From: an uncultured Candidatus Saccharibacteria bacterium
GTDB taxonomy: Bacteria > Patescibacteriota > Minisyncoccia > Phycocordibacterales > Zambryskibacteraceae
Assembly (NCBI GenBank): GCA_964384735.1
Contig: CAYLKX010000002.1
Location: forward strand, 9,381 to 34,019
Direction of reading: 5' to 3'
DNA length: 24,639 bases
Shown: piece after piece, positions 2,135 through 20,410 of the stretch
Position numbering within the stretch: the stretch's first letter is position 1
Layout of the letters: each line of letters starts with the position of its first letter
Notes under the pieces: generated by a model
What the model saw: the letters and a program-made list of their open reading frames with translations, nothing else
What the model was told of the DNA's origin: nothing
The model's database searches: none
Made by a program: the position numbers and the translations under genes

Positions 2135-2163
2135 TTGACGTATATAATATAAAGTGCTATAGT
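2135..2163 (+). promoter_or_regulatory. sigma70 promoter TTGACG-17-TATAGT
   Basis: Near-consensus boxes with exact 17-bp spacer; GGGAGG SD precedes ATG 2184. Confidence 0.7.
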
Positions 2164-2183
2164 TGTATGTAGGGAGGGTCCTA

Positions 2184-2426
2184 ATGACTTGGGTGTCGGA
2201 AGCAATTGGCTGGGCAGCGGACGCTTGTTTCCTGCTCGCTTACTTCCTGGTCTCTCGCAAGAAGATTGAGGGATCGGGTAAGGAGTTCAACTTCTTAAAC
2301 CTCGGTGGAGCCATCTTGTATGGCACGTACGCCATCATCAAGCACGCTCTGCCGATCTTTATTCTTGAAGCTTTCTGGGGCGTCATCGCGATCACCGCGC
2401 TCAAGGAGGCATACAAGAAGAAATAA
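2184..2426 (+). CDS. Small multi-pass membrane protein (80 aa), resembles CBU_0592-like / PQ-loop-type small membrane proteins
   Basis: Three hydrophobic segments; IGW...LLAYFLVS...FNFLNLGGAIL pattern; start moved to the ATG after the SD. Confidence 0.6.
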   Translation: MTWVSEAIGWAADACFLLAYFLVSRKKIEGSGKEFNFLNLGGAILYGTYAIIKHALPIFILEAFWGVIAITALKEAYKKK

Positions 2427-2478
2427 GCACCTTCACACACACCGCGTGGGCCACACTGGCCCCGCGGTGATTCTTTTT
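2425..2478 (+). repeat. Cassette-boundary repeat R1 (bulged GC hairpin plus T-tract)
   Basis: 54 bp identical to 3172-3225; stem CACCGCG(T)GGGCCA-cac-TGGCCCCGCGGTG. Confidence 0.9.
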
Positions 2479-2484
2479 GTGATG

Positions 2485-2513
2485 TTGATATAGTTATATT
2501 TTAAATATACAAT
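2485..2513 (+). promoter_or_regulatory. sigma70 promoter TTGATA-17-TACAAT
   Basis: Boxes and spacer seen directly; homologous promoter at 3231. Confidence 0.7.
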
Positions 2514-2584
2514 CAGATTAGACTTGGGGTTAACCCCTCTCTCTATTAACCAGATACTCTGGCCGTAGGAAATTAGGAGGAGAC

Positions 2585-3172
2585 ATGATCACTAAAGGTA
2601 AAGGGCCCCGTGCCCAAGGCTACAAAAGCCTGGTGTATGGGGCAATCTGTGGAATGGGGCTAGCTTTCACCTTCATCTACTTAATCTGGCGCTTCAACGG
2701 TGGAGCGACGGCTGACCTGGTGATTCGCCCAGGGATCTTCTTGCTCATGTCATGCACGGTAGCCTTGGGCTACTGGCTCAGTGACACCTTGCACAGATCG
2801 TGGTGGAAGGAGAAGGTCCTTGATCTGGTTGGCAATAGGGTCGCCCTCGCCAAGATCGCCGATGACAAGTTGGTCGAGCTGGCCAAAAAGGTCGAGGCTG
2901 CCCACAGGCTTGTCAATCAAATCGAGAGGCATGAGGACGTGGATAAGCTAGCCAAGGTCCTGGGCTACGAAAGAACCCGTCCTGACGACCCGGCTGGGCT
3001 GGCGTTTTGGTGGAAAGGCCTGCAGGAGAGGGCGGACAACCTCTACTACGAAGCCGTGCACGAGTTCTCCAGTTGCCAGGATGACTTCGAAGTGCTGGCC
3101 GGAGTCTTCGACTTCAAGCTTCGTGAATACGAACTTGACCCGCACTCTGGCTTGATCAGATTCAGGCCCTGA
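2585..3172 (+). CDS. Hypothetical 2-TM membrane protein, paralog A (195 aa)
   Basis: AGGAGG SD; two N-terminal hydrophobic helices; clear paralog at 3330-3908. Confidence 0.8.
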   Translation: MITKGKGPRAQGYKSLVYGAICGMGLAFTFIYLIWRFNGGATADLVIRPGIFLLMSCTVALGYWLSDTLHRSWWKEKVLDLVGNRVALAKIADDKLVELAKKVEAAHRLVNQIERHEDVDKLAKVLGYERTRPDDPAGLAFWWKGLQERADNLYYEAVHEFSSCQDDFEVLAGVFDFKLREYELDPHSGLIRFRP

Positions 3173-3225
3173 AGCACCTTCACACACACCGCGTGGGCCA
3201 CACTGGCCCCGCGGTGATTCTTTTT
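3172..3225 (+). repeat. Cassette-boundary repeat R2
   Basis: Identical to R1 over 54 bp; begins at the TGA of paralog A. Confidence 0.9.
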
Positions 3226-3230
3226 TGATA

Positions 3231-3259
3231 TTGACATAGTTAGATTTTAAATATACAGT
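3231..3259 (+). promoter_or_regulatory. sigma70 promoter TTGACA-17-TACAGT
   Basis: Consensus -35 and 17-bp spacer. Confidence 0.7.
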
Positions 3260-3329
3260 CAGATTGGACTTAGAGTTAAAACCCCCTCTATTAGCCAGAT
3301 ACCCTGGCAGTAGGAAATTAGGAGACTGT

Positions 3330-3908
3330 ATGATCACAAAAGGAAAGGGGCCTGCTCAGGCCTCCAAAAGCCTGGTCTATGGTGCAATCTGTGGGATGGG
3401 GCTGGCCTTTGCCCTCATCTACTTGATCTGGCGCCTCAACGGTGGAGCGGCGGCTGACCTGGTGATTCGCCCAGGCATCTTCTTGCTCATGTCATCAGCG
3501 GTAGCCTTGGGCTACTGGCTCAGTGACACCCTGATCAGATTGCGTTGGAAGGAGGAGGTCCTTGAACTAGTGGACAAGAGCATCACCTTCGACAAGATCG
3601 CCGAAGACAAGCTCGTCGAGCTGGCGAAAAAGGTTGAAGCCCAGCACATTCTCTTCAACAAAATCCTGTGTTGCAAGAGTGTGGAAGAATTAGCCCAGAT
3701 CCTGAACTATAGGGAAGGCCCCTCTACCGACCTAGGAGAGCAGTCTCTCTGGTGGCACAAAGAGAAGGAAAGGGCGGAAAGGCGCTACGACGATGCTGTA
3801 AATGAATTCTTCAGTTGCTACGACGACTTCAGAAAGCTCTCCAAGATCTTCGACTTCAAGCTTCGAGAGCGCAACTGGGGCACGTACTCTGGCACCGTCA
3901 GATCCTGA
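3330..3908 (+). CDS. Hypothetical 2-TM membrane protein, paralog B (192 aa)
   Basis: Start set to MITKGKGP to match paralog A; AGGAG SD upstream. Confidence 0.8.
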   Translation: MITKGKGPAQASKSLVYGAICGMGLAFALIYLIWRLNGGAAADLVIRPGIFLLMSSAVALGYWLSDTLIRLRWKEEVLELVDKSITFDKIAEDKLVELAKKVEAQHILFNKILCCKSVEELAQILNYREGPSTDLGEQSLWWHKEKERAERRYDDAVNEFFSCYDDFRKLSKIFDFKLRERNWGTYSGTVRS

Positions 3909-3913
3909 TCCCA

Positions 3914-3955
3914 TTCACACGCACCGCGTGGGCCACACTGGCCCCCGCGGTGATT
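3914..3955 (+). repeat. Cassette-boundary repeat R3
   Basis: Differs from the R1 core by 1 substitution and 1 extra C. Confidence 0.85.
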
Positions 3956-4042
3956 TCGTTTTTAAGCCTTAAATTTCAACATTTTTTAATAATTACTTAT
4001 CCCCAGTTTTGATGAAAATAGGGGATTTTTTGCTAGTTTTGT

Positions 4043-4085
4043 GTGGTGTAGTGGTATAAAATAGTTGATAGGTGGGAATAAGTGG
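4043..4085 (+). promoter_or_regulatory. Putative MraZ boxes (GTGG repeats)
   Basis: GTGG at 4043, 4051, 4072, 4082; the last two are 10 bp apart as in characterised MraZ operators. Confidence 0.45.
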
Positions 4086-4089
4086 TATG

Positions 4090-4154
4090 CGAATAGCCTT
4101 ACGAAAAGGCACATGCGAATCTAAACCCCATTCGATCAAATTCGTAACAATTCG
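4090..4154. repeat. CGAAW x3 then ATTCG x3 array in the mraZ leader
   Basis: CGAAT 4090, CGAAA 4102, CGAAT 4116; ATTCG 4130, 4140, 4150. Confidence 0.8.
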
Positions 4155-4157
4155 TAT

Positions 4158-4553
4158 ATGTTCATCGGCGAATACACACACACTGTTGATGAGAAGAATC
4201 GCTTCTCCATGCCAGCCAAGTTTAGAAAAGAGCTTGGCCGGAAGGTGGTGGTCACTCGCGGTAAGGATCATTGTCTCTTCCTCTATCCCATCAAGACTTG
4301 GACGGCAATCTCAAAGGAGGTTACTGGCTTAGGGCACGTCAATAGTGATCAGCGTTACGCTCGATTCACCTTTGCCGGCGCCTCCGAAATCGAGATTGAT
4401 TCCATCGGCAGGATCTTGGTGCCCGAATTCTTGCGAGAGTTCGCCAACCTAGACCAAAGCATTGTGATCACCGGCGTGCACGACAGGGTTGAGATCTGGA
4501 ATGAGAAGCGCTGGTTGGATTACAGGAAGAAATTGGAATCCGAATATGCTTAA
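4158..4553 (+). CDS. mraZ: Division/cell-wall cluster transcriptional repressor MraZ
   Basis: MFIGEYTHTVDEKNRFSMPAKFR, DSIGRILVP, GVHDRVEIW; precedes rsmH. Confidence 0.95.
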   Translation: MFIGEYTHTVDEKNRFSMPAKFRKELGRKVVVTRGKDHCLFLYPIKTWTAISKEVTGLGHVNSDQRYARFTFAGASEIEIDSIGRILVPEFLREFANLDQSIVITGVHDRVEIWNEKRWLDYRKKLESEYA

Positions 4554-5478
4554 TCCGGCCAACTCCGCTAAAGCTACGTCGGCTAAACATAAAACTGTTC
4601 TTTTACAAGAAGCGATCGAGCACTTAGGTCTCGAAGAGGGTGGGAACAAAACCTTCGTCGATGCCACTTATGGTGGTGGAGGCCACAGCCAAGAGGTAGC
4701 CAGGCGCTACCCAAAGGTGAAGGTGATCGGCATCGACCAAGATCCAGCGGTAAATCCTAAACCAGAAATCCTAAATCCTAAATTGGAATTCAGGCGGGGG
4801 AACTTTAGGAATATTGACCAAATTCTTGGAGAGATCCGACCAGATGCGATCCTCTTCGACCTTGGTTGGTCCACCGACCAACTAGCCGGCAAGGGGATGA
4901 GCTTCATGCACGACGAGCCTCTCGATATGAGACTCGGCGGGCCCCGCCGAGAAGACGGCGGGGTAAATTTTAGTGCCAAAGATGTGGTAAACAACTGGAG
5001 CGAGGAGGCTCTAGAGCTCATCATCAGAGGCTTCGGCGAGGAGCGTAACTCAAGGCGAATTGCGAGAGCGATTATGGAAGAGCGAAGTTTCGCTCCCATC
5101 AACACCACTCTCGAGTTGGCTCAAATCATTGAGAGCGTGGTGCCAAGGCGTGGACGCATCCACCCAGCTACCAAGACCTTCCAAGCCTTGAGGATCACCG
5201 TTAACGAAGAGCTCACAGCTCTAGAGGAAGGTTTGGCCAAGGGTTGGCAGATCCTCAACTCTGGTGGACGTATGGCGGTGATCTCCTTCCACAGTCTCGA
5301 AGATCGCATTGTAAAAAGATTCTTTAAAGAAAAGGTTGAGGAGAGGAGTGGGGAGTTTATTAATTCACCCCGCCTAGGACCAGGCGGGGCAAGGAAGCCA
5401 ATCGTGCCAAGTGAGGAGGAATTGGAGAGGAACCCACGCTCCCGCAGTGCCAAACTCCGAATTATTAAAAAATTATGA
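4546..5478 (+). CDS. rsmH: 16S rRNA m4C1402 methyltransferase RsmH (MraW)
   Basis: HKTVLL, DATYGGGGHS, DEPLDMR, HPATKTFQALRI, ISFHSLEDRIVK, NPRSRSAKLR; start at the ATG overlapping the mraZ end. Confidence 0.95.
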   Translation: MLNPANSAKATSAKHKTVLLQEAIEHLGLEEGGNKTFVDATYGGGGHSQEVARRYPKVKVIGIDQDPAVNPKPEILNPKLEFRRGNFRNIDQILGEIRPDAILFDLGWSTDQLAGKGMSFMHDEPLDMRLGGPRREDGGVNFSAKDVVNNWSEEALELIIRGFGEERNSRRIARAIMEERSFAPINTTLELAQIIESVVPRRGRIHPATKTFQALRITVNEELTALEEGLAKGWQILNSGGRMAVISFHSLEDRIVKRFFKEKVEERSGEFINSPRLGPGGARKPIVPSEEELERNPRSRSAKLRIIKKL

Positions 5479-5840
5479 AAACCAAAATGACTTTAAACCA
5501 GATGAGTCTCCCGTTCGGCGAAGCTAAGGCCGAGCTCCTTTCATATGACAACCGGGTGAAGACATTTTGGACTCTCGCCATGCTCTGCCTCCTCGCTTTC
5601 GTGGCTTACTTCTACGCTATCAACGTCACGGCACACAACGTTGCTCAGCGCGGAGCCTTAGAGCGCGAGGCCGGCAACCTCACCACTGAGATCGCCAGCC
5701 TAGAATTCCAATATATTGGCCTTAAGGATCAAGTGACGATCGAAACCGCTCATGGTCTTGGCTTCAAAGAGGTTAGCAACCCGCTCTACGTCGCTCGTGG
5801 TGGGAATAACTCTCTATCTTTCAACACCGTTAACCGTTAG
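5475..5840 (+). CDS. FtsL-like single-TM coiled-coil division protein
   Basis: Lies between rsmH and ftsI; TM followed by coiled coil; AHGLGF motif at the usual C-terminal position. Confidence 0.6.
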   Translation: MKTKMTLNQMSLPFGEAKAELLSYDNRVKTFWTLAMLCLLAFVAYFYAINVTAHNVAQRGALEREAGNLTTEIASLEFQYIGLKDQVTIETAHGLGFKEVSNPLYVARGGNNSLSFNTVNR

Positions 5841-10171: not shown

Positions 10172-10185
10172 TATCTTTTATTCTA

Positions 10186-10214
10186 TTGACTTTATAATCT
10201 AAACATGCTATTAT
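10186..10214 (+). promoter_or_regulatory. sigma70 promoter TTGACT-17-TATTAT
   Basis: Boxes and spacer seen; AGGAGG SD before ATG 10260. Confidence 0.65.
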
Positions 10215-10259
10215 TAAGAGCAGAGTACCTGTCGGGCCTAATGGCCCAGGAGGAGTGTA

Positions 10260-11556: not shown

Positions 11557-12981
11557 CTAAAAGCTATTAAAATCCTCCTCAATCTTGCCGTAGTTAGAAT
11601 AGTCTATCTCAGCAAAGGTGTTGAAGCGAGAGTGGTAGTCGATCTGGACGTTACCCAAAGGACCGTTCCTATGCTTGGCCACAATGAGCTCCTTCCTCTG
11701 CACCTCCTTAATCTTGCCAGACTCATCACGAATATCCTCCTCATTTTGGTGGATAAACATCACCAAGTCGGCGTCTTGCTCAATAGAACCTGAGTCGCGG
11801 AGGTCAGAGAGCTTAGGCTTACCACCACGTTGCTCAATGTTACGTGAGAGCTGAGAGAGAGCAATGACAGGGATATTGAGCTCACGAGCCAAGTGCTTAA
11901 GGCCACGAGAGATCTCGGTCACTTGCTGAACAGTGGAGTCTGAGGCGCGAGCTTGAGAGGGGGCCATGAGTTGAAGGTAGTCCACAATGAGGAGTTTGAG
12001 CCCCTTCTCAATCTTGAGCTTGCGAGCAGCAGAGCGCATCTTCATGATCGTGTTGCCTGGCTGATCGTCGATATAAATAGGCGCTCTCGAGAGATCATCG
12101 AGGGCATCACGAATATTTTTAAACACATCGTCACGCCAAGTCCCACTCTGGGTGCGCACACCCTTGCGGATCACTGAGGCATCTGTCTTAGACTGAGCGG
12201 CGACGATACGATCCACGAGCTGATCGGCACTCATTTCAAGGGAGAAGATGCCCACCGGGATCTGATGCTCTGAGGCAATGCGTCGAGCAATATCGAGAGC
12301 GAAAGCCGTCTTACCCACAGATGGGCGAGCAGCAAGGATAATGAGGTCAGACTTTTGGAACCCGCCTAAAATATCGTCGAGTGACTTGAAGCCAGTTGGC
12401 ACACCACGGAGCTCGTGCTCAGCACTAGAAAGTTTTTCAAACCTCTCAAAAGCATCATGAAGGAGGGGCACAATGTCTTGGAAGCGTGAGGTACCGGAGA
12501 AGCGCTCGGTGATGTCGAAGACCTTCTTCTCCGCCTGGTCGAGGATCTCCTCAAGCTCTCCAGCCTCGTTGAAGCCGAGGTGAGAGAGATGCTCAGAGGC
12601 CTCAATGAGCTGACGCATCATATACTTCTTCATCACGATCTCCGCGTAGTGCTTGATATTGGCTGAGGAAGGCACTGAGCTAGAAAGCTCGGTGAGGAGA
12701 GCCACGCCACCAACCTTGTCCAAAATTTCACGCTCTTTCAAACGAGTGGAGAGGGAGAGGAGGTCGATAGGCTGATGCTTGCCGAAGAGGTCAAGCATCG
12801 TTTCGAAGATCATGCGATGCTTCTCAAAATAGAATGACTGCGTATTGACGATGTCCAAGATTTCGTAAATTGCATCTGGGCGAAGCATTACTGAGCCAAG
12901 GAGAGCCATCTCGGCCTCCAGAGAGTGAGGAGGGATACGAAGTCCCGCATTGGTGAGTGATGATGCGCCAGAAATTTGCAT
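11557..12981 (-). CDS. dnaB: Replicative DNA helicase DnaB
   Basis: PPHSLEAE, AARPSVGKT (Walker A), VDYLQLM, LSQLSR, LSDLRDSGSIEQDAD, AKHRNGP. Confidence 0.96.
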   Translation of the reverse strand: MQISGASSLTNAGLRIPPHSLEAEMALLGSVMLRPDAIYEILDIVNTQSFYFEKHRMIFETMLDLFGKHQPIDLLSLSTRLKEREILDKVGGVALLTELSSSVPSSANIKHYAEIVMKKYMMRQLIEASEHLSHLGFNEAGELEEILDQAEKKVFDITERFSGTSRFQDIVPLLHDAFERFEKLSSAEHELRGVPTGFKSLDDILGGFQKSDLIILAARPSVGKTAFALDIARRIASEHQIPVGIFSLEMSADQLVDRIVAAQSKTDASVIRKGVRTQSGTWRDDVFKNIRDALDDLSRAPIYIDDQPGNTIMKMRSAARKLKIEKGLKLLIVDYLQLMAPSQARASDSTVQQVTEISRGLKHLARELNIPVIALSQLSRNIEQRGGKPKLSDLRDSGSIEQDADLVMFIHQNEEDIRDESGKIKEVQRKELIVAKHRNGPLGNVQIDYHSRFNTFAEIDYSNYGKIEEDFNSF

Positions 12982-12985
12982 AACA

Positions 12986-13019
12986 CGAATTATAACGAAT
13001 CTGGCCGAATGGCACGAAT
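12986..13019 (-). repeat. 4x ATTCG (sense strand) at ~10-bp period across the dnaB promoter
   Basis: CGAAT on + at 12986, 12996, 13006, 13015; TATAAT on - at 12989-12994, 7 nt from the ATG. Confidence 0.8.
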
Positions 13020-13073
13020 GAAGAAAATGGCGAAATGGGGGAGAGTGGGTGGAAAAGGTGGGGAAAAGATCAT

Positions 13074-13102
13074 TTGACACAATTGGAATCCAAACATATA
13101 GT
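13074..13102 (+). promoter_or_regulatory. sigma70 promoter TTGACA-17-TATAGT
   Basis: Near-consensus; AAGGAG SD precedes ATG 13137. Confidence 0.7.
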
Positions 13103-13136
13103 ATCCGAGCAGTACCTCACACAAAGGAGCACGCCT

Positions 13137-13328
13137 ATGGAAAAGCGTCACCAGGAAGTGAGTCAGGATGATCAGTTGATCGCCACGATGGTGGCCGACC
13201 TCAGGTTGGTCCACCCCCGTGGCCTGAACGGCAAGGACCTCGACAAGATGGTCAACTCGAACTTCGGTTCGAGCCCGCCCAACGGAATCCGCGAACTGCT
13301 GATGATCCGGCTCTGCCAGACGCATTAG
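13137..13328 (+). CDS. Hypothetical small protein (63 aa)
   Basis: Promoter, SD and downstream 13-bp hairpin frame the ORF. Confidence 0.6.
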   Translation: MEKRHQEVSQDDQLIATMVADLRLVHPRGLNGKDLDKMVNSNFGSSPPNGIRELLMIRLCQTH

Positions 13329-20401: not shown

Positions 20402-20410
20402 TGTGGATAA
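20402..20410 (-). promoter_or_regulatory. Consensus DnaA box
   Basis: TGTGGATAA is the reverse complement of TTATCCACA. Confidence 0.4.

Follow-up and report, generated by a model that had tools for sequence, protein, structure and literature searches.

Organisation of the gyrB–mraZ interval

The window analysed here is a stretch of 24,639 nt from an uncultured Candidatus Saccharibacteria bacterium (GenBank GCA_964384735.1, contig CAYLKX010000002.1, positions 9,381–34,019; G000:C2:9381-34019, with G000 denoting the source genome), and its subject is a row of three small open reading frames (ORFs) between gyrB and mraZ, each closed by a copy of the same hairpin-forming block (R1, R2 and R3). 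The source assembly amounts to 0.36 Mb (360 kb) in 42 contigs, is ~88% complete and has 48% GC; genome sizes in the genus are 0.4–0.6 Mb. The conserved left anchor is gyrB (145–2124), taken from the ORF list and placed upstream of mraZ in congener loci by tblastn; the conserved right anchor is mraZ (4158–4553), the first gene of the dcw cluster, followed by rsmH, ftsL and ftsI. All features between the anchors lie on the same (+) strand as the anchors themselves.

Each of the three ORFs has a sigma-70-like promoter and a Shine-Dalgarno (SD) sequence ahead of its ATG. P1 (2135–2163; TTGACG-17-TATAGT, with TG ahead of the -10) begins 11 nt past the gyrB stop codon and precedes ORF1 (2184–2426), which encodes an 80-aa small membrane protein and ends in R1 (2425–2478; stem-loop at 2440–2469 plus T-tract). 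P2 (2485–2513; TTGATA-17-TACAAT), homologous to P3, precedes ORF2 (2585–3172), encoding 195 aa with two transmembrane (TM) helices and a helical C-terminal domain, and then R2 (3172–3225; stem-loop at 3187–3216 plus T-tract). P3 (3231–3259; TTGACA-17-TACAGT) precedes ORF3 (3330–3908; 192 aa), a paralog of ORF2, and R3 (3907–3961; stem-loop at 3922–3952), a diverged block located where congeners carry their own, different terminators. Promoter sites, SDs and ORF list agree with an earlier interpretation made from the letters of this DNA (the sequence-only reading), which had described three promoter-SD-ORF units.

The region between gyrB and ORF1 (2125–2183) holds no terminator belonging to gyrB, unlike congeners with short spacers, in which a hairpin and T-tract follow gyrB immediately; R1 is therefore the first terminator met by gyrB read-through. 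Base composition gives no clear foreign signature for ORF1–3 relative to their neighbours, only a slight excess in GC and in GC at third codon positions (GC3; 0.69–0.71 versus 0.54–0.64).

A hairpin block repeated after each stop codon

R1, R2 and R3 make up a 54-nt repeat family in the window. R1 and R2 are 100% identical over 54 nt, as the sequence-only reading had it, and R3 matches them at 46 of 55 positions in a gapped alignment (~16% diverged overall). The two changes that had been attributed to R3 are those within a 42-nt core (one A>G substitution and one inserted C); the first 7 nt and the T-tract differ as well, so the count holds for the core only. The repeated block starts within the stop codon (TAA at 2424–2426 for ORF1; TGA at 3170–3172 for ORF2) and the stems begin 13–14 nt past the stop codon (at 2440, 3187 and 3922), in keeping with the claim that one hairpin closes every unit. 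Folded as RNA, R1–R3 each form a 13-bp GC stem closed by a 3-nt loop (-25.9 to -27.7 kcal/mol; z = -4.4 to -4.9; 0 of 200 shuffles as stable). The extrahelical T proposed for this stem is present as a bulged U in R1 and R2; in R3, the extra C converts the bulge to a 1x1 mismatch. When the columns of the unit-to-unit alignment (76% identity) were shuffled 200,000 times, 6 shuffles reached a perfect run of 54 nt, which places the identity of R1 and R2 beyond chance.

All three stems are stable, GC-rich and followed on the sense strand, after the stop codon, by a T-tract (5–6 T in the 10 nt 3′ of the stem), and R1–R3 are, as judged from these features, canonical intrinsic (Rho-independent) terminators, with termination in vivo predicted. 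Intrinsic termination had been suggested in the sequence-only reading as an additional property of the hairpin; here it appears to be the main role, and a sufficient one. A scan of the whole assembly for hairpins with T-tracts returned 437 sites, 44 of them at <= -20 kcal/mol and many with GC stems of 11–14 bp and loops of 3–4 nt; the R copies rank 15th–17th and so fit the normal terminator pattern of the genome. In congeners, gyrB and the ORF2/ORF3 homolog each end in equally strong hairpin and T-tract terminators, at the same position but unrelated in sequence, and R3 occupies the position of the congeners' terminator ahead of the dcw promoter. The hairpins would insulate the three transcription units from one another, with R3 blocking read-through into the mraZ/dcw promoter. 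An Rfam search of R returned no family at E <= 1 except for a chance-level match to NrrF.

A search for more copies, which the sequence-only reading had proposed as a check, found none in the source genome or in 40 relatives, and the exact 22-mer of the hairpin is absent from two public contig collections (one of genomes, one of metagenomes). An alignment of the locus likewise found no relatives in metagenome contigs. A dispersed repeat of the repetitive extragenic palindromic (REP) or miniature inverted-repeat transposable element type was considered for R and rejected, with only three local copies in 360 kb. A different 70-nt repeat family, unrelated to R, is dispersed in this genome.

An old tandem duplication of ORF2 and ORF3

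The units 2425–3171 and 3172–3906 align head to tail across terminator, promoter, leader and ORF, as expected for a tandem array of paralogs, and both ORFs are intact. ORF2 and ORF3 share 62% aa identity, and the promoter and leader of the two units are 81% identical (81–86% across the promoter region). Cassettes 2 and 3 of the sequence-only reading are, as it proposed, a tandem duplication, and its further argument that a single duplication cannot account for three repeats also stands, since duplication of one promoter-ORF-R unit gives two copies of R. Synonymous divergence between the ORFs (dS = 0.55; 39% of synonymous sites changed) indicates that the duplication is old rather than recent, and the ratio of nonsynonymous to synonymous divergence (omega) is 0.49 overall, falling to 0.20 over the TM half and reaching 0.64 over the C-terminal half. 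ORF2-R2 and ORF3-R3 are, on these estimates, an old tandem duplicate with both copies under purifying selection. The age of the duplication and the maintenance of both copies argue against a dynamic ‘accordion’, the second option raised in the sequence-only reading, and a gene accordion fits this locus poorly as a class, given that its copies should be near-identical and those here differ at dS 0.55. The 54-bp perfect direct repeat predicts loss or amplification of ORF2 through unequal recombination in populations.

A fast-evolving membrane-protein family upstream of mraZ

Searches with the single proteins and with a two-sequence profile (5.8 G and 1.84 G proteins) returned only ORF2 and ORF3 themselves. 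Neither has a match in Pfam, NCBIfam, PADLOC or PHROGs; a PDB sequence search and Foldseek against PDB gave nothing significant, all ESM Atlas matches score < 0.9, and the AF2 models (predicted local distance difference test scores of 65 and 71) contain only two TM helices and a helical bundle. Six congeners, however, have a gene immediately before mraZ, on the same strand, whose product combines two TM helices at the N-terminus with a helical C-terminal domain. Five of these (175–191 aa) were aligned: those of G042 (L044:6264-6836), G043 (L042:583-1110), G047 (L045:578-1102), G017 (L040:589-1143) and G024 (L024:2088-2654); the sixth, from G021, was found by profile search and stands outside the alignment. 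BLASTP of ORF2 against the mraZ-upstream neighbour in G024 was not significant; hhalign of the ORF2/ORF3 profile against the five congener proteins gave a probability of 91% (E = 1e-6, 100 columns). The joint alignment has a C-terminal motif in common (F-Y/S-S-x-Y/Q-D ... K-L-x-x-R-x-W-x-x-Y-x-G), which ORF3 shares with the congeners.

With a profile built from the seven sequences, 9 of the 37 genomes in the genus gave a family member, as against none of 200 genomes outside the genus but within the order. Of the eight congeners that have the family, at least six carry the gene immediately before mraZ, each time with a different terminator, and two copies are present only in this species among the genomes searched. 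ORF2 and ORF3 are therefore not true orphans; as profile and synteny indicate, they belong to a genus-restricted, very fast-evolving accessory gene family tied to the position before dcw. A family of this kind was missed by searches of billions of proteins, and its recognition needed synteny together with profile comparison.

ORF1 and the variable gyrB–mraZ slot

ORF1 is unrelated to ORF2 and ORF3, as had been noted for cassette 1, and matches NF047864 (CBU_0592 family) with 43.4 bits against a cut-off of 25, over model positions 2–70 of 72; PHROGs returned for it only a weak match, to an entry of unknown function. The CBU_0592 family is present in 0 of 36 congeners, which marks ORF1 as a newcomer; it is, as the sequences indicate, new at the locus and within the genus apparently confined to this species. 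A 136-aa membrane protein encoded after gyrB in three congeners was compared with ORF1 as a possible relative and proved unrelated.

The order gyrB then mraZ is kept in all 28 congeners in which both anchors are readable; mraZ was found in 34 congeners, six of which fall outside this count (upstream flank unexamined or contig end). The spacer between the anchors measures 115–195 bp in 14 congeners and 0.4 to >2.4 kb in the rest. Its cargo, labelled by reading of translated ORFs without family-model scoring except for named Pfam matches, includes a toxin-antitoxin-like pair (locus L021), a GIY-YIG nuclease (L030), an SGNH-like hydrolase (L038), DUF5674 (L023), an EamA-like membrane protein (L010) and the 136-aa membrane protein mentioned above (L041, L045 and L040). 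The gyrB–mraZ spacer is, on this comparison, an insertion hotspot with varied cargo, spanning a whole genus of the Candidate Phyla Radiation (CPR).

Between R3 and mraZ lies a conserved, apparently ancestral spacer (3990–4157) whose elements are common to congeners. A DnaA-box-like sequence, TTATCCACA (complement TGTGGATAA), is kept across the genus in the interval from the last terminator to the mraZ promoter (L013, L019, L020, L024, L042, L044 and L045); the window version is degenerate (TTATCCCCA at 3997–4005), and a perfect TGTGGATAA is found near the xer gene (window 20402–20410). The conserved element could serve DnaA control of the dcw operon or be related to an origin. It is followed, just upstream of mraZ in the window (~4040–4090) and in nearly all congeners, by GTGG repeats ~10 bp apart (consensus GTGGGAAATAGTGGTA) around a -10-like TATAAAAT, and this block probably acts as operator for MraZ and promoter for dcw.

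Origin of the three R copies

The explanation we favour, with a probability of about 0.72, is a species-specific filling of the variable gyrB–mraZ slot in a very small CPR (Paceibacteria-type) genome, made up of a duplication, terminators and one copied block (R1), with no recombination system. From the homologies and divergence figures given above we infer the following order of events. The core is a genus-restricted, fast-evolving 2-TM gene with a cytoplasmic helical domain, which normally stands just before mraZ with a promoter and a strong Rho-independent terminator of its own; in this lineage, an old tandem duplication of the promoter-ORF-terminator unit would have produced ORF2-R2 and ORF3-R3; and a foreign ORF1 with its own promoter would later have arrived beside gyrB, its 3′ end now meeting R1. 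R1 itself would have been copied recently from R2, possibly by gene conversion or by break repair on the paralogous R2–P3 template, with priming in the homologous P2/P3 region and a left junction that closed without homology in the ORF1 stop codon.

The divergence figures fit this sequence of steps. The ~16% difference between R3 and R2 is in line with neutral divergence of the units, as seen in promoter and leader (81% identity) and at synonymous sites (39% changed). R1 and R2 match at 54 of 54 positions, whereas identity is 81% in the neighbouring promoter and leader and 84% between R1 and R3 (P ~1e-7 at the identity of the remaining alignment). At R1, homology ends abruptly on the left, inside the ORF1 stop codon, and runs smoothly on the right into the 81–86% identical promoter region. 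Because the identity of R1 and R2 far exceeds that of the flanks and homology stops abruptly in the ORF1 stop codon, R1 was most likely copied from R2 recently, as a short tract; the tract adjoins the non-homologous ORF1, so that one end must have joined without homology. The sequence-only reading had named three findings that would together speak against its own proposal: a lack of other copies, a constant cassette number across strains, and a recent gene-conversion tract as the source of the identity. Two of them are borne out, since the searches described above returned no other copy and the identity is explained here by a short conversion or copy tract.

Several points weigh against this history. 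Termination is predicted from sequence. The three R copies admit more than one history, and R1 needs an extra event beyond duplication of the promoter-ORF-R unit. R has a loose resemblance to the upstream terminator of L044 and to the one that follows gyrB in L015, making an ancestral upstream R conceivable; the likeness could be due to chance between GC-rich palindromes. The stem is conserved in R3 too (1 change in 30 nt), so that selection on the stem explains part of the identity. At 54 nt, the exact identity has the length k-1 for an assembly whose contigs overlap by 55-mers, and in a genome ~88% complete an unassembled extra R copy is possible. The main alternative to recent copying of R1 is an older upstream R homogenised by conversion, which the terminators of L044 and L015 keep open. 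A related history, in which an ancestral array of at least three promoter-ORF-R units had its first ORF replaced by ORF1 and purifying selection or concerted evolution kept R1 and R2 identical, is unlikely, though less so than the explanations considered further below. It draws on the near-invariant stem of all three copies, R3 included, on the plausibility of strong selection on terminators beside the dcw promoter, and on the strong terminators that congeners also have there. Such selection, however, allows compensatory change, as in R3, and R1 and R2 also agree throughout the T-tract and the 15 nt preceding the stem, both of which have diverged in R3; the probability of 54/54 at the flanking identity is ~1e-7 to 1e-5. 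Recent copying of R1 from R2 remains the preferred account of the repeat. An origin of the ORF1-R1-P2 linkage, or of the exact R1/R2 identity, in de Bruijn assembly of a mixed population is very improbable. Contig ends overlap by exactly 55 nt (e.g. C2 1–55 = C21 5805–5859), giving an assembly k of 55, and a perfect repeat of 54 nt is the longest without a common 55-mer, a match in length that is probably a coincidence; 55-mers duplicated 155 nt apart (C1 10028–10082 = 10183–10237) are taken to flank 100-N scaffold gaps. At k = 55, two copies of a 54-nt repeat have no graph vertex in common and mis-joins are unexpected, reads must contain the 55-mers that link ORF1 with R and R with P2, and the exact proteins are found on 6–8 contigs (ORF1 on 8, ORF2 on 6, ORF3 on 7) in NCBI, ENA and Logan assemblies.

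An integron-like array, in which R would be an attC-like site or a hairpin substrate of Xer and the units mobile cassettes, was the leading idea of the sequence-only reading and has hardly any likelihood left. It started from three units, each closed by one and the same imperfect hairpin carrying an extrahelical T, from the lack of relationship between cassette 1 and cassettes 2 and 3, and from a tyrosine recombinase 16 kb away. That recombinase, the only PF00589 protein of the genome, is of the Xer type (XerC 192 bits, XerD 189) and scores 69 bits with the TIGR02249 integron-integrase model against a cut-off of 265; the AT-rich palindrome before its gene bears no resemblance to R. R contains no GTTRRRY/RYYYAAC core, a lack already recorded in the sequence-only reading, and its stem-loop is 30–31 nt long with a 3-nt loop; attC sites are 57–141 nt in length. 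Every cassette has its own -35/-10 and SD, with P2 and P3 conserved between the paralogous units; units 2 and 3 stay homologous across R, promoter and ORF, which is what simple duplication would leave; cassettes 2 and 3 are paralogs; and in congeners the same gene ends in terminators of unrelated sequence. Without an integrase, an attC core or further copies in the genomes and contig collections searched, and with promoters of their own, the units do not support a recombination-site reading: R is no recombination site and the locus no new recombination system. A recurrent capture of terminators in this genome by hairpin-promoted template switching, which would graft a neighbour's terminator and at times its leader onto newly acquired genes, with R a mechanistic junction rather than a passive duplicate, is improbable, if less so than the integron. 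It would account for a second locus (G000:C1 4535–5515, described below) at which unrelated ORFs have a common leader and terminator, and for the R1 junction, which likewise falls within a stop codon. Against it, there are two such loci only, both explicable by ordinary duplication with gene replacement or conversion, and self-comparison of the genome revealed no further pairs of this kind. A candidate ‘new integron-like system’ is thus removed, and the array is an ordinary tandem duplication with intrinsic terminators.

Shared signals at a second locus and other repeats in the genome

In the rplK–argS interval (G000:C1 4535–5515; L056:636-1616), an 81-aa orphan (4571–4816) and an NT5C-type 5′-nucleotidase (4928–5491), mutually unrelated, follow leaders that are 90% identical with a 25-nt exact core (4535–4574 and 4891–4931) and end in terminators that are 95% identical with a 33-nt exact core (4832–4874 and 5473–5515). 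The stop codon of the nucleotidase ORF lies inside the hairpin loop. A leader motif, TGGC(N)GT(T)AGG, was considered as a feature common to the cassettes of C1 and C2 and found unconvincing, with 7 matches in the genome against 3.3 expected, 4 of them accounted for by the two paralogous pairs.

The presence of two cases in 0.36 Mb suggests recurrent copying of expression signals from one accessory gene to its neighbour in this genome, and two loci with unrelated accessory genes under copied signals hint at how streamlined genomes supply new genes with terminators. As a general process in minimal CPR genomes, ‘expression-signal capture’, with strong terminator hairpins, and at times leaders, copied onto newly acquired neighbouring genes through hairpin-stalled template switching or break repair, is a doubtful proposition at present, marginally less so than the recurrent template switching weighed above. 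If true, it would domesticate foreign ORFs in fixed intergenic slots, and R1/ORF1 and the G000:C1 pair would be two instances.

Other repeats in the genome are of different kinds. At G000:C5 12856–13247, an 86-aa GIY-YIG-type ORF (12899–13159) lies between two 44-nt putative tRNA 3′ ends (T-arm-like) that are 100% identical; this looks like an insertion at a tRNA gene that duplicated its target, the tRNA identity being judged by eye. Repeat pairs of 120–140 nt with 81–88% identity are present at G000:C1 32665–33262, C4 16124–16812 and C28 1633–2114. Those of C4 and C28 adjoin ORFs that read like reverse transcriptases, and such an ORF lies ~0.7 kb downstream of the C1 pair; the three pairs look like template and variable repeats of diversity-generating retroelements, the transcriptase assignment coming from reading of the ORFs. 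Just downstream of the C1 reverse-transcriptase-like ORF is a pair of highly structured 77-nt hairpins (G000:C1 34791–35090).

Comparison with known systems

The locus resembles an integron cassette array in that several small ORFs stand in line and an imperfect hairpin with one extrahelical base follows each of them. It differs in having no IntI, attI, Pc or R″/L″-L′/R′ cores, in the 30-nt hairpin, in the promoters of the units, in their paralogy and in the absence of other copies. An integron with IntI and an attC array was accordingly rejected as a class: neither the integrase, nor the attC core, nor promoterless cassettes, nor cassette mobility could be recognised here. The likeness to a tandem duplication with concerted evolution is closer, with homologous units head to tail and one perfect short segment within units that are 75–85% identical, although the R tract abuts the non-homologous ORF1, unlike textbook conversion between fully homologous copies.

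Gene slots and repeat-flanked genes of a similar kind are reportedly known from the ‘minimal mobile elements’ of Neisseria, said to have been described by Saunders & Snyder in 2002, and from the REP-mediated duplications attributed to Shyamala et al. in 1990. With the former, the locus shares a fixed intergenic slot between anchor genes that is filled by different genes in each lineage, and with the latter, short direct repeats around a gene that can be substrates of unequal crossing-over. R, however, belongs to no dispersed repeat family. Phage ‘morons’ are independent promoter-ORF-terminator units inserted between conserved genes (PMC3594210), and the units of the gyrB–mraZ slot are likewise self-contained transcription units between conserved syntenic genes, with cargo that differs among relatives. 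They differ from morons in lying on a bacterial chromosome, with no phage genes nearby and only the weak PHROGs match of ORF1.

The closest counterpart is the intrinsic terminator. Like one, R is a GC stem-loop with an immediate U-tract, on the coding strand and after a stop codon, of a stability and geometry found elsewhere in this genome and in congeners. There is no essential difference, the bulged U being minor; what is unusual is the use of one sequence by three neighbouring genes.

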